Shown piece by piece: positions 9,001 through 49,897 of a DNA stretch of 64,000 nucleotides (positions within the stretch are counted from its first letter, which is position 1; each line of letters opens with the position of its first letter). Where the stretch lies: positions 1,477,118-1,541,117 of the forward strand of contig OZ242192.1 in the NCBI GenBank assembly GCA_965205955.1, in the 5' to 3' direction. Source of the stretch: Gammaproteobacteria bacterium (GTDB lineage: Bacteria; Pseudomonadota; Gammaproteobacteria; Eutrophobiales; Eutrophobiaceae). The position numbers and the translations under genes are program-made. The notes beneath the pieces were generated by a model. It ran no database searches, was not told the DNA's origin, and saw nothing but the letters and a program-made list of their open reading frames with translations.

Positions 9001-12000
9001 CGGTACCGATCGAGAACGACGAGAGAGACGAGGCGAACGGCATGATAACCGCGACGGTGGAGACCGGCACAGGTTACACGGTAGCCTCGCCGCCAGGCAA
9101 CACAGCCAGTGTCGCGGTCGAGGATGACGACGACGAGCCGACGCTGGCGATTAACTCGCCGAGCGTGACCGAGGGCAACAGTGGCACGGCGACGCTGCGC
9201 TACGTGGTGACGCTGACCGGGATGACGGAGCGGGAAGTGACGGTGCGGTATGCGGAGGGCTCGGGCGGCACGGCGACTTCGGGCACCGACTACAACAGGA
9301 TTACCGGCGGCATGCTGACCTTTGCGTCGGGCACGACCACACAGAACATCGACGTAACGGTGAGGGGGGACACGACGGACGAGCCGAACGAGACGGTCAT
9401 CGTCACCCTGTCGAACCCGGACAACGCAACGATTATGACCGCCGACGGCACCGGCACGATTACCGACGACGACGACCCGGAAATCTCTATAGCTGCCGGG
9501 GCTGCGGTGACCGAGGGGACGGCGGCGACCTTCACGCTGACGGCGACCTCCGCTCCGGGGACAAACCTGACCGTGACGGTTACGGTGGACGACGGGAGCG
9601 GCAACTTCATTGCCGGTGTAGCGCCGACGACGGTAACGATTACCGGCACGACGGCCACGCTGAGGGTGCCGACCATGGGCGACTCTATTGACGAGGCCAA
9701 CGGCATGATAACGGCGACGGTGGAGACCGGCACCGGCTATACGGTAGACGGGACGAACAACAGCGCCAGTGTCGCCGTCAATGACGACGACGCTGCGCCG
9801 ACGCTGGCGATTGACTCCCCGAGTGTGGCAGAGGGCGACAGCGGCACGGCGACACTCAGCTACGAGGTGACGCTGACCGGGGCGACGGAGCGGGAAGTGA
9901 TGGTGCAGTATGCGGGCACAGGCGGCACGGCGACCTCGGGCACCGACTACACCGCGATTACTGCCGGCACGCTGACCTTTGCGCCGAGTGTGACCACACA
10001 GAACATCAACGTAACGGTGAGGGGGGACACGGTGGAGGAGATGAACGAGACGGTCTTCGTCACCCTGTCGAGCCCGGTCAACGCGACGATCGTCGGCAAT
10101 GGCAGAGGCACCGGCACGATTACCGATGACGATGGGGTGGTGGCACTGCCGGTAATCTCTATAAGGGCCGTCGGGTCTTTCGTGAACGAGGGAGTGCCGG
10201 CTATCTTCACGCTGACGGCGACCCCTGCTCCGATGGCGGATCTGACCGTGACCGTTACGGTGGATCCAGGCACGTACGCTGACGGTATCCCGCCGACGAC
10301 GGTAACGATTACCGGTGGCGAGACGACGGCCATGCTGACGGTACTGACCGAGAACGACATGAGACAGGAGCAGCCGTCGGGGATTATTTCTGGCCCGATA
10401 ACGGCGACGGTGGAGGACGGCGCAGGCTATACGGTAGGCTCGCCCAACACAGCCACTCTCTCTGTGATTGATGCCGACTCTCCGCCGTCTCTGAGCATTG
10501 ACTCGCCGAGCGTAGCCGAGGGCAACGCCGGGATGACGAGGTTGCGCTACACGGTGACACTGACTAACGAGTCGGAACTGATGGTGACGGTGGACTACGC
10601 GGATGAGACGGGCACTGCGGCCGGCGACACGGCGACCTCGGGCACCGACTACACCCCGCTCCCCTCTGGTACGTTGACCTTTGCGCCGCGCACGACCACA
10701 CAGAACATTGACGTAATGGTGATAGGGGACACGGATGTCGAGCCGGACGAGACGGTCATCGTCAGACTGTCGAATCCGGTGAACGCGAGGACTGGTTCCT
10801 CTTTAGACCGCACCGGCACCGGCACGATTACCGATGATGACCTGCCGGTCATCTCTATAGCCGCCGGGCCTTCCCCGGTGATCGAGGGGGCGCCGGCTAC
10901 CTTCAGGCTGACGGCGAACCCTGCTCCGGCGGCGAATCTGACCGTGACGGTTGCCGTGAGCGACGGGGCGGGCGACTTCATTGGCAGTCCGCCACCGCCG
11001 CCGACGGTGGTAATTCCCTCAGGAGGTTCGGTGACGCTGTCGGTGCCGACCAACGACGACACTGCCGACGAACCGAACGGCATGATCACGGCGACGGTGG
11101 GGAGCGGTACGGGCTACACGGTGGACGGGACGAACAACACAGCCAGTGTCACAGTCAATGATAACGACACGGCGGTGGTGCCGGTCATTTCTATAGCCGC
11201 CGGGACTTCCTCGGTGATCGAGGGGGCGCCGGCGACCTTCACGCTGAGGGCGAACGTTCCTCCGCCGGCGACTCTGACCGTGATGGTTACCGTTACCGCC
11301 TCGGGCGACTTCATTGGCAGTCCGTTGCCGACGACAGTGATGATTACCACGTCAGGTTTGGTGACGCTGACGGTACCGACCATGGACGACTCTATCAACG
11401 AACCGGATGGCATAATAACGGTGACGGTGACGGCCGGTACGGGCTACACGGTAGCCACAGGGGGAGGCAACACGGCCAGTGTCACGGTCCAGGATAACGA
11501 CGTGCCGGCCATCTCCATAGCCGCCGGGCCCCCGGTGACCGAGGGGGCGCTGGTTACCTTCACGCTGACGGCGAACCCTACTCCGGCGGCGGATCTGACC
11601 GTGACGGTTACCGTCACCGACTCGGGCGACTTCATTACCGGTGCGCCGCCGGCGACGGTAACGATTACCGGCAGTGCCACGACGGCTACGCTGGAGGTGC
11701 CGACCACCGACGACACTACCCCCGAGACGCTCGGAATGATAACGGCGATGGTAACGGCGGGCGACGGCTACACAGTCGGTACCCCGGCCATGGCCACGGT
11801 CGATGTACGGGATGACGATACAGGGATAGTTATCTCTATAGTCGCCGGGACTTCCCCGGTGCCCGAGGGGATGGCGGCGACCTTCACGCTGACGGCGGAC
11901 CCTGCTCCGTTGGCGAACCTGACCGTGACGGTTACCGTTACCGACTCGGGCGACTTCATTACCAGTGCGCCGATGCCGACGGTGGTAATTCCCCCGGCAG

Positions 12001-15000
12001 GTTCGGTGACGCTGACGGTGCCGACCACCGACGACACTACCCCCGAGCCGAACGGCGTGATAACGGCGACGGTGACGTCCGGCGCCGGCTACATGCCAGC
12101 CGGAGGGGGAGCCGACAGCGCCAGTGTCACGGTGAATAATGACGACCGCGAGGCACCGACAGAACCGGGTGTCTTCGTCTCCCAGACGGAACTCAGTATT
12201 GAAGAAGGTAGCGAGGCCATCTACACCGTGGTACTCGACACCGCGCCGACGGACGATGTCACGATTACCCCGATGGTCGCTCCTGCCTCGGATGTACTCA
12301 GCGAGACTTTCTCTTCGGGCGACGAAGTGCCGGCAACGGTATCCGAGGCGCTGACCTTCACCCCGGCCAACTGGAACGTGCCACAGCCCGTCACTGTAAC
12401 CGGCGTGGACAACAACAGAACAGGAGCCCTCTTCCTGCAGGTGAGAGTGCGCCATATGGCCTCGAGCTCGGACGGCGACTATGACAGTGTGGGCATCGCG
12501 AGCGTGAGAGTCGACGTGTTCGATGACGATCCTTTGCTCATCATCTCCCATACGGAACGCACGGTGGCTGAAGCTGGCGGCATGGCCGAATACACCGTAG
12601 TGATGGGCTTCAGGCTGAGCGTAGATTTACCTGTTAGCCTGGTGAGCGATGCCCCCACGGTGGCGACGGTATCGCCGCCGGATCTGACCTTCACCCCGTC
12701 CAACTGGGATACGCCGCGGACCGTGACCGTGACCGGCGTGAACGACCCCTTCGACAATCCCGATGACCGCACTGCGACCATCAGCCATACGCATATGGTT
12801 GACGGTCGCGACTTTGGATCGCCTTCTCTTACGGAGGATATTCGCAACTTTGTATCGAGATCTGTGGTCGTCACCGCGACCGATGATGAGACCGCCGGCG
12901 TCACCATCTCCCCAGCCCCAGGGATGCCCATGGTTTCTTTAGGGGACGAAGCGACCTACACTGTGGTGCTGGATACCCCTCCGACCGACGGGGTATTAAT
13001 AATCCTTAGGGAAGAATTCTTTCAAGACGGGTCGGCGATGGTGGTTGATGTATCGCCGTTTGATGAGAGGACTCTGATTCCTCTGCCTCTGAGGTTTACC
13101 CCGTCCGCTTGGAACGTGCCACAGACCGTGACCGTGTTTGGCCGTGAAGTCGGCACTGCGAGCCTCATGTATAGTGCCGGGAGTAGAGACGACAGCTATC
13201 ATGAGATAGACATTGCGCCTCTGGTCATCACCGTGGCTGATAACGGTCCCGTCGCCCGCGTCCGCGTTTCGCCGGCGATGGTTCAGGTGGGCGAGGATAG
13301 CGGCACGACGGAGTACACCGTAGTGCTGGACAACCGGCCGCCGACGGCCGATGTCACCATCACTCCGGCGAGTGGTGACACTGCGATAGCGACGGTATCG
13401 CCGACGGAGCTGACCTTCACCCCGGACAACTGGAACATAGCGCAGCCCGTCACCGTCACCGGTGTGGACGACCCCGACTATAACCCCCCCTTCGGCAACC
13501 GCGCTGTGGCCGTAAGCCATACGGCTGCGAGCTCGGACGTCAACTATAACGGAAGAAGCATAGATCCTGTGACCGTCACCGTAGTAGATGACGAAATACG
13601 GCCAGCAGGAGTCATCGTTACAGATATAATCGGCGGTTTGATCATCGTGGGCGAACTGGACGACTTCGACACCGAACTGGGCATGGGCCGCACCAACACC
13701 TACGCCCTGGTGCTCAACAGACAGCCGACGGACAATGTCACCGTCACTCCGAGGAGTGGCGACACTGCGATAGCGAGGGTGAGCGGGGCGCTGACCTTCA
13801 CCCCGGACAACTGGAACACAGCGCAGACCGTCACCGTGACCGGCGTGAATGACGACGTTGATAATAGCGGCGACACCCGCACTGTGACCATAACCCATAC
13901 GGCTGTGAGCATGGAGGACGCCTATGACGGGATAACCATAGATACTGTGACCGTCACCGTAGAAGATGACGACACCCCCGGCGCCATCGTCTCCCCGACG
14001 GAACTCAGTATTGAAGAAAATGGCGATGGCATCTACACCGTGGTACTCGGCACCGTGCCGACGGCCCCTGTCATGATTACCCCGATGGTCGCTCCTAACT
14101 CGGATGTACTCAGCGAGACTTTCTCTCCAGGCGACGAAGTGCCGGCAACGGTATCCGGGGTGGCACTGACCTTCACCACGACCAACTGGAACGTGCCACA
14201 GACCGTCACCGTAACCGGCGTGGACAACAACAGAACAGGAACCCTCTTCCTGCGGGTGAGAGTGCGCCATATGGCCGAGAGCTTGGACAGCGACTATAAC
14301 GGGGTGGGCATCGCGAGCGTGAGAGTCGACGTGTTTGATGACGATCCTTTGCTCATCATCTCCGAATCGGCACTCACGGTTGCAGAAAATGGCGGCATGG
14401 CCACATACACCGTAGTGATGGGCGTCAGGCTGAGCGTAGATTTACCTGTTAGCCTGGCGAGCGACACGACCTCGGTGGCGACGGTATCGTCGACGGGGCT
14501 GACCTTCACCCCGGACAACTGGGATACGCCGCAGACCGTGACCGTGACCGGCGTGAACGACCCCTTCGACAATCCCGATGACCGCACTGCGACCATCAGC
14601 CATACGCATATGGTTGATGGTCGCGACTTTGGATCGAGTTCGGAGGAGGAGGATATTCGCGAACTTGTATCGAGATCTGTGGTCGTCACCGCGATCGATG
14701 ATGAGACCGCCGGCGTCACCATCTCCCCAGATATGCACATGGTTTCTGTAAGGAGCAGAGCGACCTACACTGTGGTGCTGGACACCCCTCCGACCGACGG
14801 GGTATTAATAATCCTTAGGGAAGAATTCTTTCAAGACGGGGCGGCGATGGTGGTTGATGTATCGCCGTTTGATGCGAGGACTCTGATTCCTCTGCCTCTG
14901 AGGTTTACCCCGTCCACCTGGAACGTGCCACAGACCGTGACCGTGTTTGGCCGTGAAGCCGGCACTGCGAGCCTCATGTATAGGGCCAGGAGTAGAGACG

Positions 15001-15053
15001 ACAGCTATCATGATATAGACATTGCACCTCTGGTCATCACCGTGGTTGAGTAG
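15..15053 (+). CDS. Giant repeat adhesin-like protein, 5'-partial. More than 5,000 aa lie in the window and the ORF runs off the window start. About 40 alternating Calx-beta-type repeats, a VCBS-like segment, a PKD-like segment, Ig-like domains, and a C-terminal cadherin/Ig-like repeat block.
   Basis: A single uninterrupted frame. The Calx-beta signature recurs every ~100 aa (DYADAG...TATSGTDYE...LTF.PG.TTQ.I.V.V.GD..DE.DETV...LS...NA.I....GTGTI.DDD). A VCBS-like stretch is present (YGSFVLDATSGVWIYTLNN ... ITGANDAP). The composition is T/V/D/G/A-rich. Confidence 0.9.
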   Translation: MMEGTTATFTVTATSAPAADLTVTVTVDDGAGNFIAGVAPTTVTITASATEATLMVATMADSIDEANGTITATVTIGAGYTVDGTNNTASVTVNDDDAEPTLAISSPSVPEGNSGSVMLRYTVTLTGATEREVTVDYADAGTGTATSGTDYETITAGTLTFTPGDATTQDIDVTVTGDAIDEGDGETVIVTLSGAVNAMITTPDGTGTITDDDAEPTLTINSPSVAEGDAGETPTLTYTVTLNGATEQTVTVDYADAGAGGSGTATSGTDYDAITPDTLTFVPGTTTQTITVMVTGDTDEEGDETVIVTLSNPDNATIATADGTGTIRGDDAPVLPTISIAAGPSPVTEADNATFTLTADPAPGTELIVTVTVDDGSGNFIASPAPTMVTITASTTTATLMVSTDDDSVDEAEGMITATVTAGAGYTIALSPDNSATVTVADNDPAPTLAINSPTVLEGDSGSTAMLRYTVTLSGETEQEVTVAYADAAGTATPDTDYETLTAGTLTFTSGGATAQNIDVIVTGDAIDEEDETVVLRLSGAVNAEITTPDGTGTITDDDAAPTLAIDSLSVAEGTTGETPTLTYTVTLTGNTEQEVTVAYADAGATGGGTATSGTDYETIAGGTLTFAPGTTTQTITVTVTGDTEDEGDGETVIVRLSNPNPVGVIITTPDGTGTITDDDDPTLPAISIAAGPSPVTEGDDATFTLTVAPAPMTDLTVTVTVDDGAGDFIASPAPTMVTITASNTTVTLTVMTEDDTTDEAAGMITATVTIGAGYTVSSPSTARVTVQDNDIVITGTPTGAVTEDAPTETATDTLVVEGGFVEQDGTTDRARGLGAYGSFVLDATSGVWIYTLNNDPTTTQGAATNALAEGDVVTEVFTAVSAADPSVEQEVTITITGANDAPTADAGLMQTVTQGITVTLDGSGSSDPDTGDMIDAYAWTQSSTPTVTLDATIEMPTFTAPAVTSPTDLGFSLVVNDGDTDSAPDPVTITVNPASAAPVVSTVEISSTGPYAAGDDIEVTVTFSEMVNVTDTPQIALMVDATTRQATYDSGTGTTALVFLYTVVDGENDADGVSIPANSLAQVAGSTIQDTDGTDDATLTHPAVDADPAQTVDTTAPTVSEVELSSDGPYALDEDIEVTVTFSEAVTVSGAPEITLTVGANERQATFSSGSDTVALVFTYTVAATETDDNGVSIPEDTLAQASGSAIQDTAGNDAVLDHDAVDADPAHAVDTTAPAFDSATVDADVLVLTYSENLDESSAPDNGDYTIGVTPGTAPTVTGVTLSGTDVTLMLSTPVTSDQTVTVSYTVGSTPLQDLAGNDAIELSDATVTNNTPMVLPTISIAAGSSPVTEVDNATFTLTATPAPGTDLTVTVTVTETGTFLGSPVPTTVMITASTTTATLTVPIDDDSIDEAPGMITATVTAGTGYMVDGAGNTASVTVNDNDAAPALAIDSPPMVTEGDDGDTATLSYTVTLSGDTTQEVTVDYADAGLVGGGTATSGADYEPITGGTLTFAPGTTTQTIDVTVRGDAIDEPDEETIIVMLSNPDNATIATDTGTGTITDNDPEPTLAIDSPNMFEGDDGDTATLRYTVTLSGDTEREVTVGYADAGTGTAASGTDYEALTAGTLTFAPGGATTQNIDVTVMGDVDDEGDEETVVVRLSGAVNATITTPDGTGTITDDDDPPALAINAPSVDEGDSGSVTLSYTVTLTGTTAQTVMVDYADAGSGTATSGTDYETITGGTLTFTPGGATTQTIAVTVTGDTIDEEDETVILRLSGAVNAEITTPDGTGTIDDDDDPPMLAISSPTMNEGNSGRAMLRYVVTLTGNTEREVTVDYADTSGGTATSGTDYDPITAGTLTFAPGGAATQNIDLMVVGDTIDEEDETVILRLSGAVNATISTADGTGTITDDDDEPTLAINSLTVPEGDSGSVMLRYTVTLNGATARTVTVQYADAGTTGGGTATSGADYDAITAGTLTFTPGGAATQTIDVMVRGDTIDEEDQTVILRLSGATNATITTPDGTGTITDDDAEPGLAINSPSVGEGDSMPLRYTVRLIGATEKEVTVQYEDSRAGSATSGADYDALTAATLTFAPGTTTQNIDVTVTDDTMNELTETVLITLSNNPVNARITTGTGTGRITDDDVPVISIAAGPAVNEGTAATFTLTANPAPAADLTVMVTVDDGAGDFIDGAAPTMVTITAGNREATLDVRTDDDSTDEVDGMITVTVTAGAGYMVAGGGDSTDSVTVRDDDDPVISIAAGAPVTEGTPATFTVTASSAPMTNLTVTVTVDDGAGNFIASPAPTTVTILASAMMATLTVPTTDDTTDEANGMITATVTDGAGYTVDGANNTDSVAVNDDDDPPTLAINSPSVDEGDTGDMPTLTYTVTLTGETEQEVTVDYADTTSGTAASGTDYTAITASTLTFAPGMTTQPINVTVRGDTIDEPNETVIVMLSNPDNATITAGSGVGTGTITDDDDPVISIVAADPTVIEGASATFTVRATSAPAANLSVMVAVTDGAGTFITGMPPTTVTIPASAMMATLTVPTTDDNTDEAPGMITATVETGTGYRVAPPPGDTARVTVNDNDALPRLAIDSPSVGEGNTGTATLSYTVTLIGATARTVMVDYADAGGGTATSGTDYTAITAGTTLTFAPGTTTQPINVTVTGDTTDEPNETVFVMLSNPVNATITAGRGTGTITDDDDPEISIVAGAAVTEGTAATFTLTASSAPGTNLTVTVTVDDGAGNFIAGSAPTTVTITGGERTAMLMVPTMADSIDEANGMITATVEDGTGYTVAGGGANTASVAVNDNDPPPTLAIDSPSVAEGDDGDAPTLSYTVTLTGDTEQEVTVGYADADSGTATSGTDYEAVTAGTLTFAPGTTTQPIEVTVTGDATDVEDETVILTLSGAVNATITTADGTGTITDDDRVPVISIVPFGPETVIEGTPPTAVRFTLMADPAPMANLTVTVTVDPGTYADGIPPTTVTITGGETMAMLPVPIENDERDEANGMITATVETGTGYTVASPPGNTASVAVEDDDDEPTLAINSPSVTEGNSGTATLRYVVTLTGMTEREVTVRYAEGSGGTATSGTDYNRITGGMLTFASGTTTQNIDVTVRGDTTDEPNETVIVTLSNPDNATIMTADGTGTITDDDDPEISIAAGAAVTEGTAATFTLTATSAPGTNLTVTVTVDDGSGNFIAGVAPTTVTITGTTATLRVPTMGDSIDEANGMITATVETGTGYTVDGTNNSASVAVNDDDAAPTLAIDSPSVAEGDSGTATLSYEVTLTGATEREVMVQYAGTGGTATSGTDYTAITAGTLTFAPSVTTQNINVTVRGDTVEEMNETVFVTLSSPVNATIVGNGRGTGTITDDDGVVALPVISIRAVGSFVNEGVPAIFTLTATPAPMADLTVTVTVDPGTYADGIPPTTVTITGGETTAMLTVLTENDMRQEQPSGIISGPITATVEDGAGYTVGSPNTATLSVIDADSPPSLSIDSPSVAEGNAGMTRLRYTVTLTNESELMVTVDYADETGTAAGDTATSGTDYTPLPSGTLTFAPRTTTQNIDVMVIGDTDVEPDETVIVRLSNPVNARTGSSLDRTGTGTITDDDLPVISIAAGPSPVIEGAPATFRLTANPAPAANLTVTVAVSDGAGDFIGSPPPPPTVVIPSGGSVTLSVPTNDDTADEPNGMITATVGSGTGYTVDGTNNTASVTVNDNDTAVVPVISIAAGTSSVIEGAPATFTLRANVPPPATLTVMVTVTASGDFIGSPLPTTVMITTSGLVTLTVPTMDDSINEPDGIITVTVTAGTGYTVATGGGNTASVTVQDNDVPAISIAAGPPVTEGALVTFTLTANPTPAADLTVTVTVTDSGDFITGAPPATVTITGSATTATLEVPTTDDTTPETLGMITAMVTAGDGYTVGTPAMATVDVRDDDTGIVISIVAGTSPVPEGMAATFTLTADPAPLANLTVTVTVTDSGDFITSAPMPTVVIPPAGSVTLTVPTTDDTTPEPNGVITATVTSGAGYMPAGGGADSASVTVNNDDREAPTEPGVFVSQTELSIEEGSEAIYTVVLDTAPTDDVTITPMVAPASDVLSETFSSGDEVPATVSEALTFTPANWNVPQPVTVTGVDNNRTGALFLQVRVRHMASSSDGDYDSVGIASVRVDVFDDDPLLIISHTERTVAEAGGMAEYTVVMGFRLSVDLPVSLVSDAPTVATVSPPDLTFTPSNWDTPRTVTVTGVNDPFDNPDDRTATISHTHMVDGRDFGSPSLTEDIRNFVSRSVVVTATDDETAGVTISPAPGMPMVSLGDEATYTVVLDTPPTDGVLIILREEFFQDGSAMVVDVSPFDERTLIPLPLRFTPSAWNVPQTVTVFGREVGTASLMYSAGSRDDSYHEIDIAPLVITVADNGPVARVRVSPAMVQVGEDSGTTEYTVVLDNRPPTADVTITPASGDTAIATVSPTELTFTPDNWNIAQPVTVTGVDDPDYNPPFGNRAVAVSHTAASSDVNYNGRSIDPVTVTVVDDEIRPAGVIVTDIIGGLIIVGELDDFDTELGMGRTNTYALVLNRQPTDNVTVTPRSGDTAIARVSGALTFTPDNWNTAQTVTVTGVNDDVDNSGDTRTVTITHTAVSMEDAYDGITIDTVTVTVEDDDTPGAIVSPTELSIEENGDGIYTVVLGTVPTAPVMITPMVAPNSDVLSETFSPGDEVPATVSGVALTFTTTNWNVPQTVTVTGVDNNRTGTLFLRVRVRHMAESLDSDYNGVGIASVRVDVFDDDPLLIISESALTVAENGGMATYTVVMGVRLSVDLPVSLASDTTSVATVSSTGLTFTPDNWDTPQTVTVTGVNDPFDNPDDRTATISHTHMVDGRDFGSSSEEEDIRELVSRSVVVTAIDDETAGVTISPDMHMVSVRSRATYTVVLDTPPTDGVLIILREEFFQDGAAMVVDVSPFDARTLIPLPLRFTPSTWNVPQTVTVFGREAGTASLMYRARSRDDSYHDIDIAPLVITVVE
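12170..15053 (+). repeat. Large intragenic direct duplication. Copy A (~12170-13250) and copy A' (~13985-15053) are about 90% identical at nucleotide level, with a ~1.8 kb period. The gene terminates immediately after copy A'.
   Basis: Long identical nucleotide runs were compared by eye, e.g. ccgacggaactcagtattgaagaa...gtgagagtgcgccatatggcc...gatgacgatcctttgctcatcatctcc in both copies. The protein blocks TELSIEEG...LIISHTERT and ...REEFFQDG...LVITV are repeated. Confidence 0.8.
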
Positions 15054-29806: not shown

Positions 29807-30616
29807 TTACTTTGAATACTGGCTATTATCTGTTTTTTTATAAATATAAATTACATTCATTTTAAATCCGGTAAAATGTTTTTCAATTAGTTCAAGGTGT
29901 CCGGCTGATACAAAGTCATTATCGATAAAATCTTCCAATTCACGATAATCGAATCCCAGGTGAGGGTCATAGCCGGTGTGTTTCGATTCTCTAAAGGAGC
30001 TTATCTCTCGTTTTTTTAGCAGATGTGCCAAATACTTCGAAAAACTATGTCTTTCAAAGAAATCTCCATAAGGATTGGGTCTAAGTAAATAACGACCTAA
30101 TAATTTAATTAATCCAACTATATAAATTTCATTAGGTATTGTTAGAATAATAATTCCCCCGGCATTTAAATGATTATAAATATTACTAAATGCATTATTA
30201 AAATTTCCAACATGCTCCAGGGTTTCAAAGCAGGTAACCAAATCAAAAGTCTTTTTCGTATCATTTATGGTATTCATATCAAAGAATTTGAATTGAGCAT
30301 CTGGAATCATCCTTTTTCGGGCTAAATCCAATAATTCTTCCGAACAGTCATAGCCCACTACAGTCGAAAATCGGAATTGAATATTCTTGATTATCTGTTC
30401 GATAATGAATCCATTCGAACATCCGAAATCCGCCCACTTGATTGTTTTTGATGGGAGGTATTTTCGAAACATCCTGAGAATTGCACGGAACCTGTTCCGA
30501 TGCACCAACGAGGCCGGATACCTGCTGGTATAATTTTTTTCATGCAATGATAAGTCTTGACTCATTTTGCGGAATAGTTTGATAAATATAGTAATCAACA
30601 GCCGAATAACAGCCAA
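29807..30616 (-). CDS. Class I SAM-dependent methyltransferase, orphan, in an AT-rich islet.
   Basis: Motif I ADFGCSNGFII and post-I VTCFETLEHV are present. The gene is about 30% GC, against about 55% for the surrounding DNA. Confidence 0.7.
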   Translation of the reverse strand: MAVIRLLITIFIKLFRKMSQDLSLHEKNYTSRYPASLVHRNRFRAILRMFRKYLPSKTIKWADFGCSNGFIIEQIIKNIQFRFSTVVGYDCSEELLDLARKRMIPDAQFKFFDMNTINDTKKTFDLVTCFETLEHVGNFNNAFSNIYNHLNAGGIIILTIPNEIYIVGLIKLLGRYLLRPNPYGDFFERHSFSKYLAHLLKKREISSFRESKHTGYDPHLGFDYRELEDFIDNDFVSAGHLELIEKHFTGFKMNVIYIYKKTDNSQYSK

Positions 30617-30915
30617 TTATATTATACAAATAGACTATTTCACAATCTATTCATCGACCCGTGCCGGGGGTACCACCCGCAACAGCCGTGCCGCCGATAC
30701 CCGGTAGCGCCTGTAGCAACTGATTCCGATTGCCTGCCTTGAGCAATTTGAGAAATGAGGTTTTGTGAACTGCAAGTATATAATCAATTATTTTATTCGC
30801 GTTTGTCGGACGGGATAAATTCGGTGCGTAGGGTAATTAAGGAGTATTTATTTTTATAGTTTTAACTTGGAAAGTTAAAGTTATTTATTAGCTATGAGAA
30901 TAAAACATTTGTTAC

Positions 30916-30944
30916 TTGACAAGTTGTGCGATGCAGCATATAAA
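30916..30944 (+). promoter_or_regulatory. Candidate sigma70 promoter for aceA.
   Basis: TTGACA (30916-30921), a 17-nt spacer, then TATAAA (30939-30944), lying ~100 nt upstream of the aceA GTG start. Confidence 0.5.
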
Positions 30945-31043
30945 GTATGTTTACACAAAAAAATTATGGTGGAAATGTGCAAGGGACCGGAGGCAAGACC
31001 ATGCACCTTCCTTTTGTTAATCATCAGTCATGGGGGATAGTTC

Positions 31044-43490: not shown

Positions 43491-43575
43491 GCCGATGTGG
43501 TGGAATTGGTAGACACGCTATCTTGAGGGGGTAGTGCCTTTTGGCGTGCCGGTTCGACTCCGGCCATCGGCACCA
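43491..43575 (+). tRNA. tRNA-Leu (anticodon GAG), 85 nt with CCA.
   Basis: GCCGATGTGGTGGAATTGGTAGACACGCTATCTTGAGGGGGTAGTGCC...GGTTCGACTCCGGCCATCGGCACCA. The anticodon loop is TTGAGGG, with a long variable arm. Confidence 0.9.
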
Positions 43576-43659: not shown

Positions 43660-46407
43660 ATGCCCCTCAGCTGGAATGAAATCCGCGATCGTGCGTTGGC
43701 GTTTTCCAATGATTGGAGCGGGGAGTCTTCCGAACGCGCCGAAGCGCAGACTTTCTGGAACGCCTTTTTTAACCTCTTCGGCGTCTCCCGCCGCCGGATC
43801 GCCTCCTTTGAAAAGCGCGTCAAGGAAGTTGACGGCAAGGGCGGCTACATCGATTTGCTGTGGAAAGGCGTGCTGTTGATCGAGCACAAGTCACGCGGTG
43901 AAAATCTCGACCGCGCTTACCAGCAGGCGCTGGATTATTTCCCCGGATTGGAAGACCGCGACCTGCCGCGTTTTGTGCTGGTGTCCGATTTCGCCCGTTT
44001 TCGGCTATACGACCTGGACGAAGGCGAGCAGCACGAGTTTGCCGTGCAAGACCTGCACAAGCACGTCAACCGTTTTGCCTTCATCGCCGGTTATCAAACC
44101 CACAAAATAAAAGAGCAGGACCCGGTCAACATCAAAGCCGCCGAGTTGATGGGCAAACTGCACGATCGGCTACGGGCAGTCGGCTACACCGGCCACGATC
44201 TGGAGGTGTATCTGGTGCGTCTGTTGTTTTGCATGTTTGCCGAAGACACCGGAATTTTTGAGCGGCAGCAGTTTCAGGAGTACATTGAAATCCGCACCGC
44301 GCAGGACGGCACCGACCTCGGGGCGCAACTCGATACCTTGTTTTATGTATTGAACGCACCGGAACCCAACCGCCTCGACAACCGCGACGAACAACTCAAC
44401 GGATTCCCGTTTGTCAACGGCAAACTGTTCGAGGAGCGCCTGCGCCCAGCGGCATTTGACTGCGCCATGCGCGAATCGCTGCTGCATTGCTGCTCGCTCG
44501 ACTGGAGCCGTATCTCCCCGGCGATTTTCGGCTCGCTGTTTCAGTCCATCATGGACAAAGACGCACGGCGCAACCTCGGCGCGCACTACACCTCGGAGGA
44601 GAACATCCTCAAACTCATCAATCCGCTTTTCATGGACGACCTGCGGGCCGAGTTTAAAAAAGTCAAAAACAACAAAAACAGGCTGTTCGAGTTCCACAAA
44701 AAACTCCGCACCCTGACGTTCCTTGACCCCGCCTGCGGCTGCGGCAATTTCCTCGTCATCGCCTACCGTGAATTGCGCCTGCTGGAGCTGGAAATTCTGC
44801 GCGCGACGTACCGGCAGGGCAGGCAGATGTTACAAATCCAAACCATGATCCAACTAGACGTGGACCAGTTCTACGGCATAGAAATCGAAGAGTTCCCGGC
44901 GCAAATCGCACAGGTGGCAATGTGGCTGGTTGACCATCAGATGAACACGCGGGTGTCGCAGGAGTTCGGTATGTACTTTGCGCGCATTCCGCTGACATCG
45001 AGCGCGAATATCGTTCACGGCAATGCCTTGCAGATGGACTGGCGGGATTTGGTTGTGCCGGAGCGGTTGAATTACATTATGGGGAATCCGCCGTTTATTG
45101 GTAAAAACTTTCAGAACAGCGAACAAAAGCAGGACATGAAGCGCATTTATGGGGAATCCAGATACAGCGCGGGATTGGATTATGTGACCGCCTGGTATAA
45201 ACAGGCTTTGCGCTATATGAAAGACAACGATGAGATTACATGCGCGTTTGTTTCCACCAACTCTATCACGCAAGGCGAGCAGGTCTATATGTTTTGGCCG
45301 GCTTTGCTGGGAGACGGCATCCAGATTCATTTTGCGCACCGGACTTTTCAATGGGCGAATGAAGCCAGAGGCAAGGCCGCCGTGCATTGCGTGATCATCG
45401 GCTTTGGCTTGAAACCGGCGAAGAAAAAGCGATTGTTTGAATACGAGGATATTCAAAGCAAGCCGCATGAAATTCGCGCCAACAATATCAACCCGTATCT
45501 TGTGGATGCTGGCAATATCGTCATTCCTGCGGCGACCAGCGCTTTGTGTGATTGCCCGAAAATGATCAACGGAAACAAGCCGACTGACGGCGGGAATCTG
45601 TTGCTGAATGAAAAGGAAAAGAATGAGTTATTAGCATTGCAACCCGAAGCAGCCGAATGGGTTAAGCCGTATTCAATGGGCAACGAGTTTATTAACGGCA
45701 TTCCCCGTTTTTGTTTGTGGTTGAAACATTGTCCCCCGGAAAAATTACGCAAGATGCCGCATGTCATAAAGCGCATAGAAGCGGTAAAAGAGATGCGCAG
45801 TAAAAGCGCGGATAAGAACACGCGGAAATTTGCCGAAAAGCCGACGGTTTTTATGGCTGATAGACAATCTGAAAGTGCGTATCTGGCGATTCCCAGGATA
45901 TCCTCTGAAAGAAGAATTTATATTCCGATAGGCTTTTTGCAACCCGACCATATTGCAGGCGAAACATTGCACACGGTGCCGAATGCAACTCTCTATCATT
46001 TTGGCGTGGTCACATCGCTTATGCACATGGCATGGATGCGGGTCGTGGGCGGCAGGCTCAAGAGCGACTATCGTTATCTAGCGAACATCGTCTACAACAA
46101 CTACCCTTGGCCTAAAACCCCAACCGAAAAACAAACCGCCGACATCGAAACCAAAGCCCAGGCAGTCCTTGACGCCCGTGCGCAATTCCCCGACTCCACC
46201 CTCGCCGATCTCTACGACCCGTTGACCATGCCGCCGCCGCTCCTCAAAGCCCATCAGGCATTGGACAAAGCGGTAGATCGCACTTACCGCAAAACCCCGT
46301 TCAACAACGAAGCCGAGCGGGTTGCCTTCCTGTTCGATCTCTACCAACAATACACCGCCCCGCTCCTGCCGAAGAAAAAAACACAGCGGCGGAAGAGGGC
46401 GATCTAA
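43660..46407 (+). CDS. MmeI-family Type IIL restriction-modification enzyme, with fused PD-(D/E)xK endonuclease, helical, gamma-class N6-adenine methyltransferase and target-recognition domains.
   Basis: At 915 aa it matches the family size. The N-terminus reads MPLSWNEIRDRALAFSNDW...AEAQTFWNAFFNLFGV...IDLLWKGVLLIEHKSRG (D...E.K nuclease core). Motif I is LDPACGCGNFLV and motif IV YIMGNPPFIGKN. Confidence 0.8.
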   Translation: MPLSWNEIRDRALAFSNDWSGESSERAEAQTFWNAFFNLFGVSRRRIASFEKRVKEVDGKGGYIDLLWKGVLLIEHKSRGENLDRAYQQALDYFPGLEDRDLPRFVLVSDFARFRLYDLDEGEQHEFAVQDLHKHVNRFAFIAGYQTHKIKEQDPVNIKAAELMGKLHDRLRAVGYTGHDLEVYLVRLLFCMFAEDTGIFERQQFQEYIEIRTAQDGTDLGAQLDTLFYVLNAPEPNRLDNRDEQLNGFPFVNGKLFEERLRPAAFDCAMRESLLHCCSLDWSRISPAIFGSLFQSIMDKDARRNLGAHYTSEENILKLINPLFMDDLRAEFKKVKNNKNRLFEFHKKLRTLTFLDPACGCGNFLVIAYRELRLLELEILRATYRQGRQMLQIQTMIQLDVDQFYGIEIEEFPAQIAQVAMWLVDHQMNTRVSQEFGMYFARIPLTSSANIVHGNALQMDWRDLVVPERLNYIMGNPPFIGKNFQNSEQKQDMKRIYGESRYSAGLDYVTAWYKQALRYMKDNDEITCAFVSTNSITQGEQVYMFWPALLGDGIQIHFAHRTFQWANEARGKAAVHCVIIGFGLKPAKKKRLFEYEDIQSKPHEIRANNINPYLVDAGNIVIPAATSALCDCPKMINGNKPTDGGNLLLNEKEKNELLALQPEAAEWVKPYSMGNEFINGIPRFCLWLKHCPPEKLRKMPHVIKRIEAVKEMRSKSADKNTRKFAEKPTVFMADRQSESAYLAIPRISSERRIYIPIGFLQPDHIAGETLHTVPNATLYHFGVVTSLMHMAWMRVVGGRLKSDYRYLANIVYNNYPWPKTPTEKQTADIETKAQAVLDARAQFPDSTLADLYDPLTMPPPLLKAHQALDKAVDRTYRKTPFNNEAERVAFLFDLYQQYTAPLLPKKKTQRRKRAI

Positions 46408-46755
46408 AGAATTGCGCTAAAATGGCTATTCTTTCAATGCCCCATCTTACTGCACATCGGCTGTATATTATAAGTACTACGATAAACCTGTTATAACTGG
46501 GATATCTATATTGTCACCAAGCATGCCAATGTGTCAGTGATATTTAATCTTTGAATAGACAATTTCTACTTTCCAGTTATTGCGGACAAGTTGTCGATAA
46601 ATATAATTCTTTCCTGCTGCCAAATCTTCAGTGGAAACTCATGGGCCGCTAGTAATCTTGCTATCTGCTTTATCAAGGTGATTTCCTGCTTAGTGTAACT
46701 CTAGGAATCTAATATTAGTTTTAGGAGTTTGAAATAGAGTTTTCAGGGTATTTTT

Positions 46756-47532
46756 TTAATCCTTATGTTTATCATTATTTTTCGATTGACGTTTGATTTT
46801 ATTGAGATCGACCAGCTCATTTCTTATTTGGTTAATTTTTATTTTATGAGGCTCATGTTTGGAGAGACAGCATTTTTTATATTTTTTACCACTTCCGCAT
46901 AAGCATAGATCATTCCTTCCGGTTTTGCCGGTTTTGCTTATTATTTCCGATTTGCAAAATTCAAGTCTCTTCTCACGATCTTCTATCTCCTCTTCAAGAG
47001 CTTCTTTTGTGGAATGTGGAGATTCTCCACATGGTGGAATTTTTCTATATTTGTAATAGTAAGACTGCCACACAAAGTATGGATAAACATCATGATGAAT
47101 GAAATCACTCAGTGAAGCTCTGGTAGATAAGCTTTTTGTCGATATGATGTTTAGGCAGCATCTGTGATCTTGAGGGAATAAATGCAAGTCAATAACTTTT
47201 TTTGTTAACTTATTTGCTAGACTCTCAATCTTCTCTCCAACTTCGTATACTTTAGGATATCTATTTTTTTGATTTAGGTCAATTTCAATTAGGTATTCGC
47301 CTGTTATACATCCATTTTGGTCATCTCTACATTGCTCTATCTCCCAATAGGTAAAATTATGCATTTTTCTCTGCTTGTAGCAACAAGCAGGAATATCCAA
47401 TATGCCGCGTATTTTGTTATCTTCTGAGCAATAGTAGAGACGAGGAAACCATTTTTTTACTTTTTCAAATTCTACCTGTGAATGTTTAATCAATTGCGAA
47501 TGGTTTTTTTGCATGCGTTGTGGGAATAACAA
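46756..47532 (-). CDS. SEC-C-motif (CxC..GSGxKYKxCC) metal-binding protein of unknown function, last gene of the AT-rich CBASS-like operon.
   Basis: The C-terminus reads ...DLCLCGSGKKYKKCCL. The N-terminal ~200 aa are Cys-rich with no domain I recognise. The gene is ~30% GC. Its 5' end overlaps the 3' end of the upstream SMODS gene by 29-47 nt, depending on which Met is used. Confidence 0.6.
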   Translation of the reverse strand: MLFPQRMQKNHSQLIKHSQVEFEKVKKWFPRLYYCSEDNKIRGILDIPACCYKQRKMHNFTYWEIEQCRDDQNGCITGEYLIEIDLNQKNRYPKVYEVGEKIESLANKLTKKVIDLHLFPQDHRCCLNIISTKSLSTRASLSDFIHHDVYPYFVWQSYYYKYRKIPPCGESPHSTKEALEEEIEDREKRLEFCKSEIISKTGKTGRNDLCLCGSGKKYKKCCLSKHEPHKIKINQIRNELVDLNKIKRQSKNNDKHKD

Positions 47533-48478
47533 CAGCTGGAGCTACGCCAATACTACTGGAGGTATTTGACGATTTTTTTGTCAATTTCCCAAAATCATCA
47601 CCAAACAATTTACGCCACTTCTTGATACTTTCATCGTGGTCTTTCTCCTCAAAAGCCTCATCAATTCTTTTATTATATATACTGAACTTGTCTCTAAAGT
47701 TATCATATTTTTTCTGATTCCAGTGTCTATTGAAATCTTCTTCAGACATGACAGGGTTTTCAATGATTGGCATGGTTATATGCATTTGGAGAAAGTCATT
47801 CAATCTATTAGAAAGAGTCTTTAATGTTGTTGGTACATCTGAAAAGTCTCTAGAGTTTCCATCTCCATCTTTGACTTCATTCCCCAACAAGGTTGTCAGT
47901 AATATAGATTTTACTGAGAAATTGTCCTTATGATCGCGCAAGAACTTCAGTAGCCTAGTTGTCTTTCTGAAATTGTTGTTTCTTACAATCTGATTTTTGT
48001 TTATCAGCCAGGTCTTATATCCATCACCGTCAGTCTTTTCATATTTTTCTTCTGTTCTGTTGCATATGTAGTTTGTTCCGTTGTGCTCTACACAAGGAAC
48101 TATGTCCAAATCAAAATCACCAGCGTAATCGATAGTTACACACCGTGTGCCTATTTCAATTTTGTCTTTGTAGTTGTCATTGTTCTTGAACACATCATAG
48201 ACTGTCTTCACATAGTCCGTTTCGAATTTGTTCGGATCAAAATTATTATCTCGAATCAAGGTTAATATATCTGCATCAAATTGATCGTTAGCTTGTACTG
48301 GCTTGATTATGGTCTTGTGGGCATATGATCCCTGCTCGCTGTATTTTCTATAGTTTGCAAGCTTTTCTTTGAGAATATCTGTGATGGTTTTTACACGTTT
48401 CTTTAGTGCTTCCAATCTCGTTGGATTCAGATTGACATGCTTATTCAGAAAATCGTCAAAATCTAGTAGGTGCTTCAT
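47486..48478 (-). CDS. SMODS-domain cGAS/DncV-like nucleotidyltransferase (CD-NTase), the cyclic-oligonucleotide synthase of a CBASS-like system.
   Basis: GS...h[DE]h[DE]h is matched by EQGSYAHKTIIKPVQANDQFDADILTLI, and the third acidic residue lies in YAGDFDLDIVPCVEH. The protein is 330 aa. A GGAGG ribosome-binding site lies 11 nt after the patatin stop. Confidence 0.7.
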   Translation of the reverse strand: MKHLLDFDDFLNKHVNLNPTRLEALKKRVKTITDILKEKLANYRKYSEQGSYAHKTIIKPVQANDQFDADILTLIRDNNFDPNKFETDYVKTVYDVFKNNDNYKDKIEIGTRCVTIDYAGDFDLDIVPCVEHNGTNYICNRTEEKYEKTDGDGYKTWLINKNQIVRNNNFRKTTRLLKFLRDHKDNFSVKSILLTTLLGNEVKDGDGNSRDFSDVPTTLKTLSNRLNDFLQMHITMPIIENPVMSEEDFNRHWNQKKYDNFRDKFSIYNKRIDEAFEEKDHDESIKKWRKLFGDDFGKLTKKSSNTSSSIGVAPAVVIPTTHAKKPFAID

Positions 48479-48489
48479 TTTTTTTCCTC

Positions 48490-49443
48490 CTATTGCTTCC
48501 GTCCGTTTAGAAAATCTGAAATGCCGGTGTTGTCTTTTGTGAACATTTCTTTAGCTCTCTCCACTAAGATGGGGATGTTTTGATAATTATCAAGTGGATA
48601 TTTATCGATAGGGGGGTTGATCCTGAAAATCCCATCTGGATCAATCAGTTGCAAGACATTTTGAGGAAACTTTGTTTGGCATGACATCATAAAATCGACC
48701 AATTGGGTATGTTTCCACCCCGTCAAAAAACCCCACCCCCATCTTTGAGGCTTTTTGTAATTGTGCTGAGCCTGCCCAGTTCCTAAAGATAAAATTTTGA
48801 TGTTATCTCGTTGTTCTGAGAAATTTCTAATGGCATCAGTATAGCCAACCAAAGAGGGATTATTTGCCCAGATGCCCCCATCACAAATAAGAGTGCCGTT
48901 TATATCTACCGGATCAAAATAAATTGGTGCTGAGCACGAGGCCAAAACTGCTTTGTATAAAGGTACTTCTCTATCACGCACATAATCGCCTTTTCGCTGA
49001 ACCTTTTGATACGATGATTTAAAGACATAGACTTCTCCAAGAGAGACGTTTGTTGCATTCAATATGAGAGGTTTTTCTATTTCTCCTAACTTCCTCTTGC
49101 CTAGTTTTTCCTGAAGAAAGCTTTCCAGAAAGGAGGAATCGTATTTGGAGCTTAAATGAATGCCTGCAAGCTTTTTCTTCCTAAATATTTTTGGGGCATT
49201 TTCGTCGTAATCCTTTACTAGCTGAGTTAAATCATACTTTGTAATGATAGCTGCAGCTATAATACTGCCGGTACTAGTTCCTACGATGAGATCGAAGGTT
49301 TTATATATATCTATATTGAGCTTGGTTTCCATAAGCTCTAGAATCTTTGCAGCGAAGATGCCTCGTACTCCACCACCATCAATGCTCAATACTCGAAATG
49401 GTCTGCTATTCATTAAATTTTCCTCTATTTCTCTGTAAACCAA
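48490..49443 (-). CDS. Patatin-like phospholipase (CapV-like CBASS effector).
   Basis: Oxyanion motif LSIDGGGVRG, nucleophile motif VGTSTGS (GxSxG) and catalytic Asp motif ICDGGIWANNP are present. Confidence 0.85.
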   Translation of the reverse strand: MVYREIEENLMNSRPFRVLSIDGGGVRGIFAAKILELMETKLNIDIYKTFDLIVGTSTGSIIAAAIITKYDLTQLVKDYDENAPKIFRKKKLAGIHLSSKYDSSFLESFLQEKLGKRKLGEIEKPLILNATNVSLGEVYVFKSSYQKVQRKGDYVRDREVPLYKAVLASCSAPIYFDPVDINGTLICDGGIWANNPSLVGYTDAIRNFSEQRDNIKILSLGTGQAQHNYKKPQRWGWGFLTGWKHTQLVDFMMSCQTKFPQNVLQLIDPDGIFRINPPIDKYPLDNYQNIPILVERAKEMFTKDNTGISDFLNGRKQ

Positions 49444-49499
49444 TTCTGCATTAGCACATACTTCATTTGTATGAGCATTATCCCGCCCTTGCTACATTC

Positions 49500-49634
49500 T
49501 TCCGCCATTCCTACCGGAGCAGAAACCCATAGATTGATTGCTGCCAATGAACAGTCCTGTTCCACAGCGGTTTGCAGGGCGAGGTACTGGCGGAGCTGCT
49601 GATGGTCATTGATATCCTCGTAGCCCAGCACCAT
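49500..49634 (-). pseudogene. IS4/IS5-superfamily DDE transposase N-terminal remnant.
   Basis: MVLGYEDINDHQQLRQYLAL...DCSLA resembles the conserved ..LGYEDLNDHD.LR.D.L.. N-terminus of IS4-like transposases and breaks off after ~40 aa. An adjacent out-of-frame Sel1-like fragment is present (MPNKDIKRFQKLLNQAEAGDPEAMFNLATAYINGAG, 49625-49738). Confidence 0.45.
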
Positions 49635-49897
49635 TTATATAGGCGGTAGCAAGATTGAACATTGCTTCTGGATCTCCAGCCTCCGCTTGATTTAGTAATT
49701 TCTGGAATCTTTTAATATCTTTGTTAGGCATTATCTCCGAACCTCGTTATTAAGCAGCGTGAGTTTGCCATCTATGCTATGGCATATAAAAACGGAATTT
49801 CCTTTTTTCTGGCTTATTTAACACTTTAAACCAGGAAATTCCGTAAAATAAACTTATGAATTATCAATGCGCCGCAAAGACAAGAATAATCCACCCG

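Follow-up and report, generated by a model that had tools for sequence, protein, structure and literature searches.

A stand-alone E2-like protein with a SEC-C zinc knuckle as the probable accessory protein of a type II (short) CBASS operon

Introduction

Which function can a small, cysteine-rich protein with a SEC-C motif near its end have in an operon for defence against phages? This question is raised by a minus-strand gene at positions 46756-47532 of a 64,000-nucleotide stretch of contig OZ242192.1 (assembly GCA_965205955.1, positions 1,477,118 to 1,541,117) from a gammaproteobacterium of the Eutrophobiaceae, and the whole of this stretch is termed the window in the following. A first-pass annotation, made from the letters alone, had seen here the third and possibly novel gene of an operon resembling a cyclic oligonucleotide-based antiphage signalling system (CBASS), with a SEC-C motif at the end and no recognisable domain in front of it. 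The answer given here is more specific: with a probability of about three in four, and by analogy, the gene product is an E2 that stands alone and serves as accessory protein in a type II (short) CBASS, also named E2-CBASS, and that would act by a mechanism like that of the Serratia pair SmCdnG and SmE2. In the window, a low-GC islet near a tRNA-Leu gene contains a complete three-gene E2-CBASS and, next to it, a restriction enzyme of the MmeI type. A large share of the catalogued CBASS E2s belongs to the same lineage, which has no detectable sequence similarity to the studied E2, and neither this lineage nor its SecA-type zinc knuckle, nor the cyclases that end with KP[YF]A and a short tail or are fused to the E2, were found discussed in the searched literature.

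The operon and the extent of its third gene

The three genes are co-directional and follow each other in the order patatin phospholipase, CD-NTase and E2-SEC-C, the latter being the last gene of the operon:

48490..49443, minus strand: patatin-like phospholipase effector (CapV-like); Pfam Patatin 7e-30, PADLOC phospholipase effector 1.3e-83; the likely true start is ATG 49413
47486..48478, minus strand: CD-NTase (SMODS) of 330 amino acids; Pfam SMODS 2.4e-29, PADLOC cyclase 5.5e-121; presumed substrate and partner of the E2
46756..47514, minus strand: E2-SEC-C gene (CBASS E2-like regulator), open to TTG 47532; assigned by the PADLOC E2 hidden Markov models (HMMs) and the homologue alignment

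The effector also matches the NCBIfam model CBASS_lipase (cGAMP-activated) with 220.8 bits, above the cutoff of 200. Pfam, PADLOC and NCBIfam models detected no E1 or adenylation (ThiF-like) domain in the E2-SEC-C protein, there is no JAB/Cap3 gene in the operon, and the list of open reading frames holds no other substantial free-standing frame between the MmeI-family gene on one side and a probable transposase remnant on the other (46408-49897). Type II (short) CBASS, or E2-CBASS, has been described as the combination of a cyclase, an effector and a lone E2, without E1 and without JAB (bioRxiv 10.1101/2022.03.31.486616; PMC12948482). Exactly this gene content is found here, with a CD-NTase, an effector, an adjacent stand-alone E2, neither E1 nor JAB, and a cysteine in the active-site loop (Cys126) for which catalysis is predicted from the sequence.

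The open reading frame is present as described and has 258 amino acids when counted from its TTG, and it is indeed a third, co-oriented and overlapping gene of the CBASS operon. The overlap with the CD-NTase gene (47486..48478) has 47 nucleotides if translation begins at TTG 47532 and 29 nucleotides if it begins at ATG 47514, which confirms the range of 29-47 nucleotides given before. A third candidate is TTG 47493, with an 8-nucleotide overlap and a product of 245 amino acids that begins with MIKHSQVEF, and this start fits the consensus N-terminus of the family (MIKYSxxEF) as well as the 8-nucleotide overlap in one relative (L086). The conserved part of the protein begins near residue 15 in the homologue alignment, and, judged from the sequence, the likely start is ATG 47514 (252 amino acids) or TTG 47493 (245 amino acids). 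An identical public protein (P0001) has a length of 202 amino acids, with Met57 as annotated start (window 46756-47364). In the family alignment, about 40 conserved residues precede Met57, and among close relatives F29, G43 and Y52 are invariant; as a start at Met57 would remove these three residues, the deposited form is probably too short. Besides this 202-residue entry there are about 57 full-length homologues with 32-57% identity, and the reading frame is therefore not a chance one. Also the AT-richness that had been ascribed to both the gene and the cyclase is real, as the GC content is 33.8% in the E2-SEC-C gene and 35.8% in the cyclase gene, with 39.0% in the patatin gene and 50-51% in both flanks.

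An E2-like domain in front of the SEC-C motif

In the numbering of the 258-residue form, the protein can be divided as follows:

46933..47490, minus strand: predicted E2/UBC-like catalytic domain, residues ~15-200
47155..47184, minus strand: active-site stretch DLH117-x7-C125-C126 as read from the sequence, with the His117 codon at 47182-47184 and the codon of the predicted catalytic Cys126 at 47155-47157
47014..47016, minus strand: His173 of a GE-x-x-H motif, the third invariant residue
46864..46917, minus strand: SEC-C zinc-knuckle motif, residues 206-223, RNDLCLCGSGKKYKKCCL, with the ligands C210, C212, C221 and C222
46759..46863, minus strand: Lys-rich C-terminal helix, residues 224-258, with the modelled helix spanning 223-254

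The SEC-C motif near the end is a true one (PF02810, residues 206-223, E 2.9e-9, 37.1 bits at a cutoff of 20.4), and as this is the only feature that Pfam detects in the protein, the N-terminal domain looked unrecognised. The PADLOC profiles give a different picture, since seven CBASS models match the protein, six of them named "E2" and one "E1-E2", the best being PDLC00872 with 9.4e-21. Residues 7-201 alone match the E2 models at 7e-14 (profile positions 37-141 of 216), and the last 63 residues alone match the same models at 4.4e-7 (positions 164-211 of 216). Both halves are thus recognised separately, which means that catalogued CBASS E2 models already hold the E2 domain together with the SEC-C tail. 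The architecture is already present in databases with several PADLOC HMMs and hence is not new there, and a stand-alone E2 beside a cyclase and an effector is just what defines E2-CBASS, so that the suggested novelty of the gene did not hold. It is a catalogued sub-lineage and not a new kind of gene, and no biochemical study of it was found in the searched literature; no paper on the architecture came up when full texts were searched for CBASS together with SEC-C or for SEC-C together with E2 or SMODS. The single SEC-C defence protein that was found in the literature, 'Rugutis', is unrelated.

As to the fold, an AlphaFold2 model built from 25 homologues reached a mean predicted local distance difference test score (pLDDT) of 83.5 and a predicted template modelling score (pTM) of 0.74. 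In the modelled protein, an N-terminal helix is followed by four strands and the loop of the active site; two long helices lead from there to the zinc knuckle, and one more helix closes the chain. A Foldseek search of the model against the PDB, as had been proposed in the first-pass annotation, gave UFC1, the UFM1-conjugating E2, as best match with a probability of 0.97 but an E value of only 0.05, and the fold also matches the CBASS E2 of Serratia (SmE2), so the domain is not unrecognisable. The structural scores are moderate, and the matches sit amid coiled-coil noise at similar Z, which is due to the long helices of the model. When the family profile was compared by hhalign with human UbcH5B, the probability was only 6.8%, and the alignment ran strand for strand and placed His117 on the histidine of the HPN motif and Cys126 on the catalytic Cys85. 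Family profiles searched against the PDB sequences returned SEC-C peptides and otherwise only an insignificant UBC match (2h2y, E 0.33), and never SmE2. Taken together, the N-terminal ~170-200 amino acids are, according to the model, an E2 (UBC-like) domain, with fold support of moderate strength. Also the statement that the protein is not Cap2 has to be corrected in this respect, as the N-terminal domain is of the same kind as the E2 part of Cap2. In comparison to the eukaryotic enzymes UFC1 and UbcH5B, to which the identity is 8-16%, the window E2 has an additional helix, inserted after strand 4 and before the active-site loop, and it further possesses a second conserved histidine and the zinc knuckle. 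No separate ubiquitin-like substrate is to be expected, because the cyclase itself is the presumed ubiquitin-like protein.

Conservation in the family

For the family-wide analysis, a profile of the N-terminal domain only, from which SEC-C had been removed, was searched against a library of 1.84 billion proteins in the form of 50%-identity representatives. A threshold of E<=1e-3 was passed by 819 representatives, and one of E<=1e-10 by 362. Among the 150 top representatives listed, 143 were new, and in 115 of these a CxCx7-11C[CH] motif follows downstream of the domain, the fourth ligand being Cys in 53 and His in 62 cases; several of the others resemble spacing variants or fragments. Some members and fusions have no SEC-C at all, such as P0186, P0214 and forms of ~165 amino acids. 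A profile search of genome contigs with the full-length alignment was dominated by the motif and returned 80 unrelated SEC-C proteins.

The conservation alignment comprised 106 diverse members with identities down to ~22%, all 106 of which are matched by the PADLOC CBASS E2 models. No columns are invariant other than those of His117, Cys126 and His173, and the SEC-C cysteines are conserved in more than 90%. The many cysteines and histidines that had been noticed in the protein do exist, but conservation throughout the family is restricted to these three residues and the SEC-C ligands. The C-terminal Lys-rich helix is little conserved and missing from many relatives, and several homologues stop directly after SEC-C.

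Linkage and fusion to cyclases

The gene is strictly associated with cyclases. In all ten distinct neighbourhoods, two of which come from distant members, a CD-NTase gene lies directly upstream on the same strand, although in one of them (L089) only a 3' remnant is left, and in most of the ten a patatin gene is found upstream of the cyclase. Moreover, 23 of the 120 closest 90%-identity cyclase clusters are single polypeptides of 511-560 amino acids in which the cyclase is followed by the E2 domain, in most cases with SEC-C, and further, more distant fusions likewise carry SMODS domains. Relatives thus recur beside CD-NTase genes and are not mostly encoded outside defence contexts, and a regulator coupled to the cyclase, which had been one of the functions considered at first, is the best reading in view of this linkage and the frequent fusions. 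The cyclase::E2-SEC-C fusions, which include P0121, P0128, P0142, P0152, P0183 and P0202 and keep KPYA in the linker, are candidates for self-processing enzymes. A Foldseek comparison of a fusion model with the PDB gave no CD-NTase clade, as CdnC, CdnD, CdnB and CdnG had similar scores.

In some relatives the operon is decaying. In L003 (2688-5047), a Transposase_mut insertion has broken the patatin gene in two, and in L089 (1319-1525) the last ~70 cyclase codons are left upstream of an E2 with a degenerate SEC-C motif (CPCGSRKKYKKYC). In L087/L088 and L090, the distant E2-SEC-C CBASS operons adjoin a pair of helix-turn-helix (HTH) and Peptidase_M78 (ImmA/IrrE-like) genes and an N6/N4 methyltransferase gene. 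The HTH/M78 pair may regulate those operons, and it is not present in the window.

The C-terminus of the cyclase

If the E2 acts on the cyclase, the C-terminus of the latter is the part to be considered:

47489..47506, minus strand: end of the CD-NTase, K325-P-F-A328 followed by I-D330, inside the gene overlap; predicted processing/conjugation site after Ala328

The tail of the partner cyclases is disordered and rich in Ser, Gly and Ala, and a conserved motif stands at its end. In 84 of 97 stand-alone cyclase homologues, [KRQ]P[YFHW]x is found inside the last 15 amino acids; the position x is taken by Ala in 72 of the 84, by Ser in 7 and by Gly in 3. Most of the 13 exceptions deviate only slightly, as with SPYA or KLYA. 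A variable tail comes after the motif, with three residues in 47 sequences and one or two residues in 20. In the fusions, KPYA is followed by a linker of 10-25 residues and then by the E2 domain. One of these fusions, P0121 (66% identical), was modelled with AlphaFold2 (pLDDT 86.8), and in this model RIVLPTVPASKPYADV forms an ordered segment (block mean pLDDT 86), while the flanking linkers 304-315 and 332-338 are below 50. The model suggests that the KP[YF]A motif docks on a folded surface.

The activation of CD-NTases by phage proteases was considered as a trigger at the cyclase tail and set aside; according to the respective study (PMC12991175), it concerns internal activation loops in enzymes of the clades A, D and G.

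Comparison with characterised systems

The closest studied counterpart is the SmCdnG-SmE2 system of Serratia marcescens (PDB 8HSB/8YJY), which is alike in gene content, in the E2-like fold, in a putatively equivalent His-Cys-His set, in a conserved small residue near the cyclase C-terminus that is followed by a removable tail, and in the existence of natural cyclase-E2 fusions. SmE2 has been found to remove the residue that follows the C-terminal Gly of the cyclase, to couple that Gly either to Cys101, by a thioester bond, or to Lys159, by an isopeptide bond, and to make hyperactive poly-cyclase chains (bioRxiv 10.1101/2022.05.25.493364; PMC12948482). His87 and Cys101 are required for the linkage and His152 for the bond conversion, phage defence is lost in the mutants C101A, H87A and H152A, and the authors regard the two histidines as specific to the E2s of E2-CBASS (bioRxiv 10.1101/2022.05.25.493364). 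H117/C126/H173 of the window protein and H87/C101/H152 of SmE2 are similar in order, with a spacing of 47 versus 51 residues between the cysteine and the second histidine, and His173 is proposed, by analogy, as the counterpart of SmE2 His152.

The differences are considerable. There is no detectable sequence similarity between SmE2 and the window E2, and the latter has ~250 amino acids with a long helix and the SEC-C knuckle, whereas SmE2 has 159-162 amino acids and no knuckle. The window cyclase has 330 amino acids and a ~35-residue disordered tail with KPFA-ID, in contrast to SmCdnG with its 407 amino acids and a helix/beta-sheet motif for E2 binding that ends with Gly-Glu. In the P0121 model, only a short ordered strand is seen in the otherwise disordered tail, and nothing like the helix and three-stranded sheet of SmCdnG. 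The conserved residue at the proposed site is Ala (72 of 84) and not Gly, and the effector is a patatin lipase and not a 2TM-SAVED protein as in Serratia. On account of these differences, the operon is filed under E2-CBASS by its gene content but outside the SmE2/SmCdnG subfamily, and the mechanism is transferred only by analogy.

In the Cap2/Cap3 type II CBASS, known from V. cholerae and E. cloacae, the target of an E2-type domain is likewise the disordered, conserved C-terminus of the cyclase, and the V. cholerae system has a patatin effector, too. The window differs from these systems by lacking the E1-E2 fusion and the Cap3 JAB gene, and the cyclase C-terminus is not pre-exposed, since two residues follow the Ala. 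A precedent for a conjugated Ala C-terminus is nevertheless given by CdnD of E. cloacae, which ends with GRFA (bioRxiv 10.1101/2022.03.31.486616).

The knuckle itself, CxCx8C[CH] with a GSGKKYKKCC signature, is shared with the C-terminal metal-binding domain of SecA, with YecA and with YchJ, and among the PDB sequences the family profile finds the metal-binding peptides of SecA and YchJ, at 1e-7 to 1e-6. Only this motif of ~20 residues is common, as the window protein has no UPF0149, UPF0225 or SecA domains, and its context is defence and not secretion. The SEC-C knuckle, which follows a long helix, most likely is a structural and docking module with bound Zn (or Fe).

Proposed mechanism and alternative explanations

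By analogy to SmE2, the E2 would bind the disordered C-terminal tail of the cyclase at the KPFA segment and, acting as a Cys/His protease, trim the last residues Ile-Asp after Ala328. The new carboxylate of Ala328 would be captured as a thioester on Cys126, and the cyclase may then be handed to lysines, those of the E2 or those of further cyclase molecules. In this way the cyclase would be held in check and, on infection, be converted to a hyperactive conjugated form, whose cyclic nucleotide would activate the patatin lipase, so that the membrane is destroyed and the infection abortive. What can be predicted from this is a cleavage after Ala328 and a thioester on Cys126.

It could be that this E2 chemistry takes place as proposed but that SEC-C is the decisive part of the protein, an addition that is not strictly exclusive of the mechanism above. 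SEC-C would then be the input module of this CBASS lineage, which anchors cyclase and E2 together at ribosomes, at SecB or at the membrane, or which senses metal or redox conditions, and a phage takeover of translation, secretion or metal homeostasis would free the activation of the cyclase. At least 80% of the family has retained ligands of the SEC-C type, the fourth being Cys or His, a pattern that points to selection for the binding of a metal. According to one study (bioRxiv 10.1101/613315), metal-binding domains of the SecA type interact with SecB and with ribosomes and can contain iron, and YchJ, which has a SecA-like metal-binding domain, has been reported to sense reactive oxygen species or redox state (PMC13377102), which makes a sensing or localising role of SEC-C conceivable; that the effector of the window acts on the membrane is in line with it. 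The members and fusions without SEC-C show, however, that it is dispensable for the core function, SmE2 functions without it (bioRxiv 10.1101/2022.05.25.493364), and neither direct evidence nor, in the full-text searches, any paper that links SEC-C with CBASS was found; such a decisive role of the knuckle is regarded as rather unlikely. Still less probable is a non-catalytic adaptor of the UEV type, which would bind the cyclase tail and stabilise or inhibit the enzyme without any covalent bond. UEV domains have no catalytic Cys, whereas Cys126 and the two histidines are the sole invariants in 106 divergent sequences here, and the conserved small residue of the cyclase with its disposable tail is hard to explain without processing.

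The operon position alone would also agree with a second effector or toxin that is switched on by the cyclic nucleotide, but Pfam, PADLOC and NCBIfam detect no SAVED, STING or CARF sensor and no toxin domain, the fold is E2-like, and the operon already has a complete patatin effector, so that this function is very improbable. As to a housekeeping SEC-C protein of the YecA, YchJ or SecA-tail type that merely lies beside defence genes, NCBIfam models of the YecA/YchJ type do match at 3e-10 to 4e-5. These matches cover only residues ~184-224, i.e. a motif region of ~20-40 residues, and with 21-41 bits they are far below the cutoffs of 68-267. The similarity to YecA and YchJ is confined to the motif, and the other ~200 amino acids are E2-like. 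All examined neighbourhoods are CBASS operons, cyclase fusions exist, and the gene has the foreign low GC content of the operon; a housekeeping role is effectively refuted. The housekeeping, toxin and UEV-adaptor explanations were rejected on this evidence, and the preferred function remains that of an E2 accessory protein that would act on its cyclase.

Surroundings of the operon

Next to the operon lie a further defence gene and a tRNA gene:

43660..46407, plus strand: MmeI-family type IIG restriction-modification gene, with all five MmeI Pfam domains and 1235 bits for PADLOC REase_MTase_IIG; outside the CBASS operon
43491..43575, plus strand: tRNA-Leu(GAG), detected by ARAGORN; borders the defence islet

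The MmeI-family gene lies between the tRNA-Leu gene and the CBASS operon, which gives a defence islet with two systems. Its GC content of 53% is host-like, compared to 34-39% in the CBASS genes, and the two systems have therefore probably been acquired separately. Scans for att-like direct repeats around the islet gave short chance matches only, and those for promoters and terminators remained at background level. Just upstream of the patatin gene, in the region 49444-49897, an open reading frame of 69 amino acids (49425-49634, minus strand) weakly matches a fragment of a DDE transposase (PF13701, E 4e-4, below the cutoff), and it is probably the remnant of an element that delivered the operon.

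Two further observations concern other parts of the window. Positions 15-15053 on the plus strand are a single open reading frame of 5012 amino acids with ~65% GC, compared to ~50% elsewhere in the window, and the composition shifts sharply near 15 kb. Its product has 13 or more Calx-beta repeats besides an SWM repeat and probably belongs to the giant surface proteins or adhesins. The other is a local GC trough (36%) at 30001-31000, which contains a class I S-adenosylmethionine-dependent methyltransferase gene (29807-30616, minus strand) and may be another small acquired segment.
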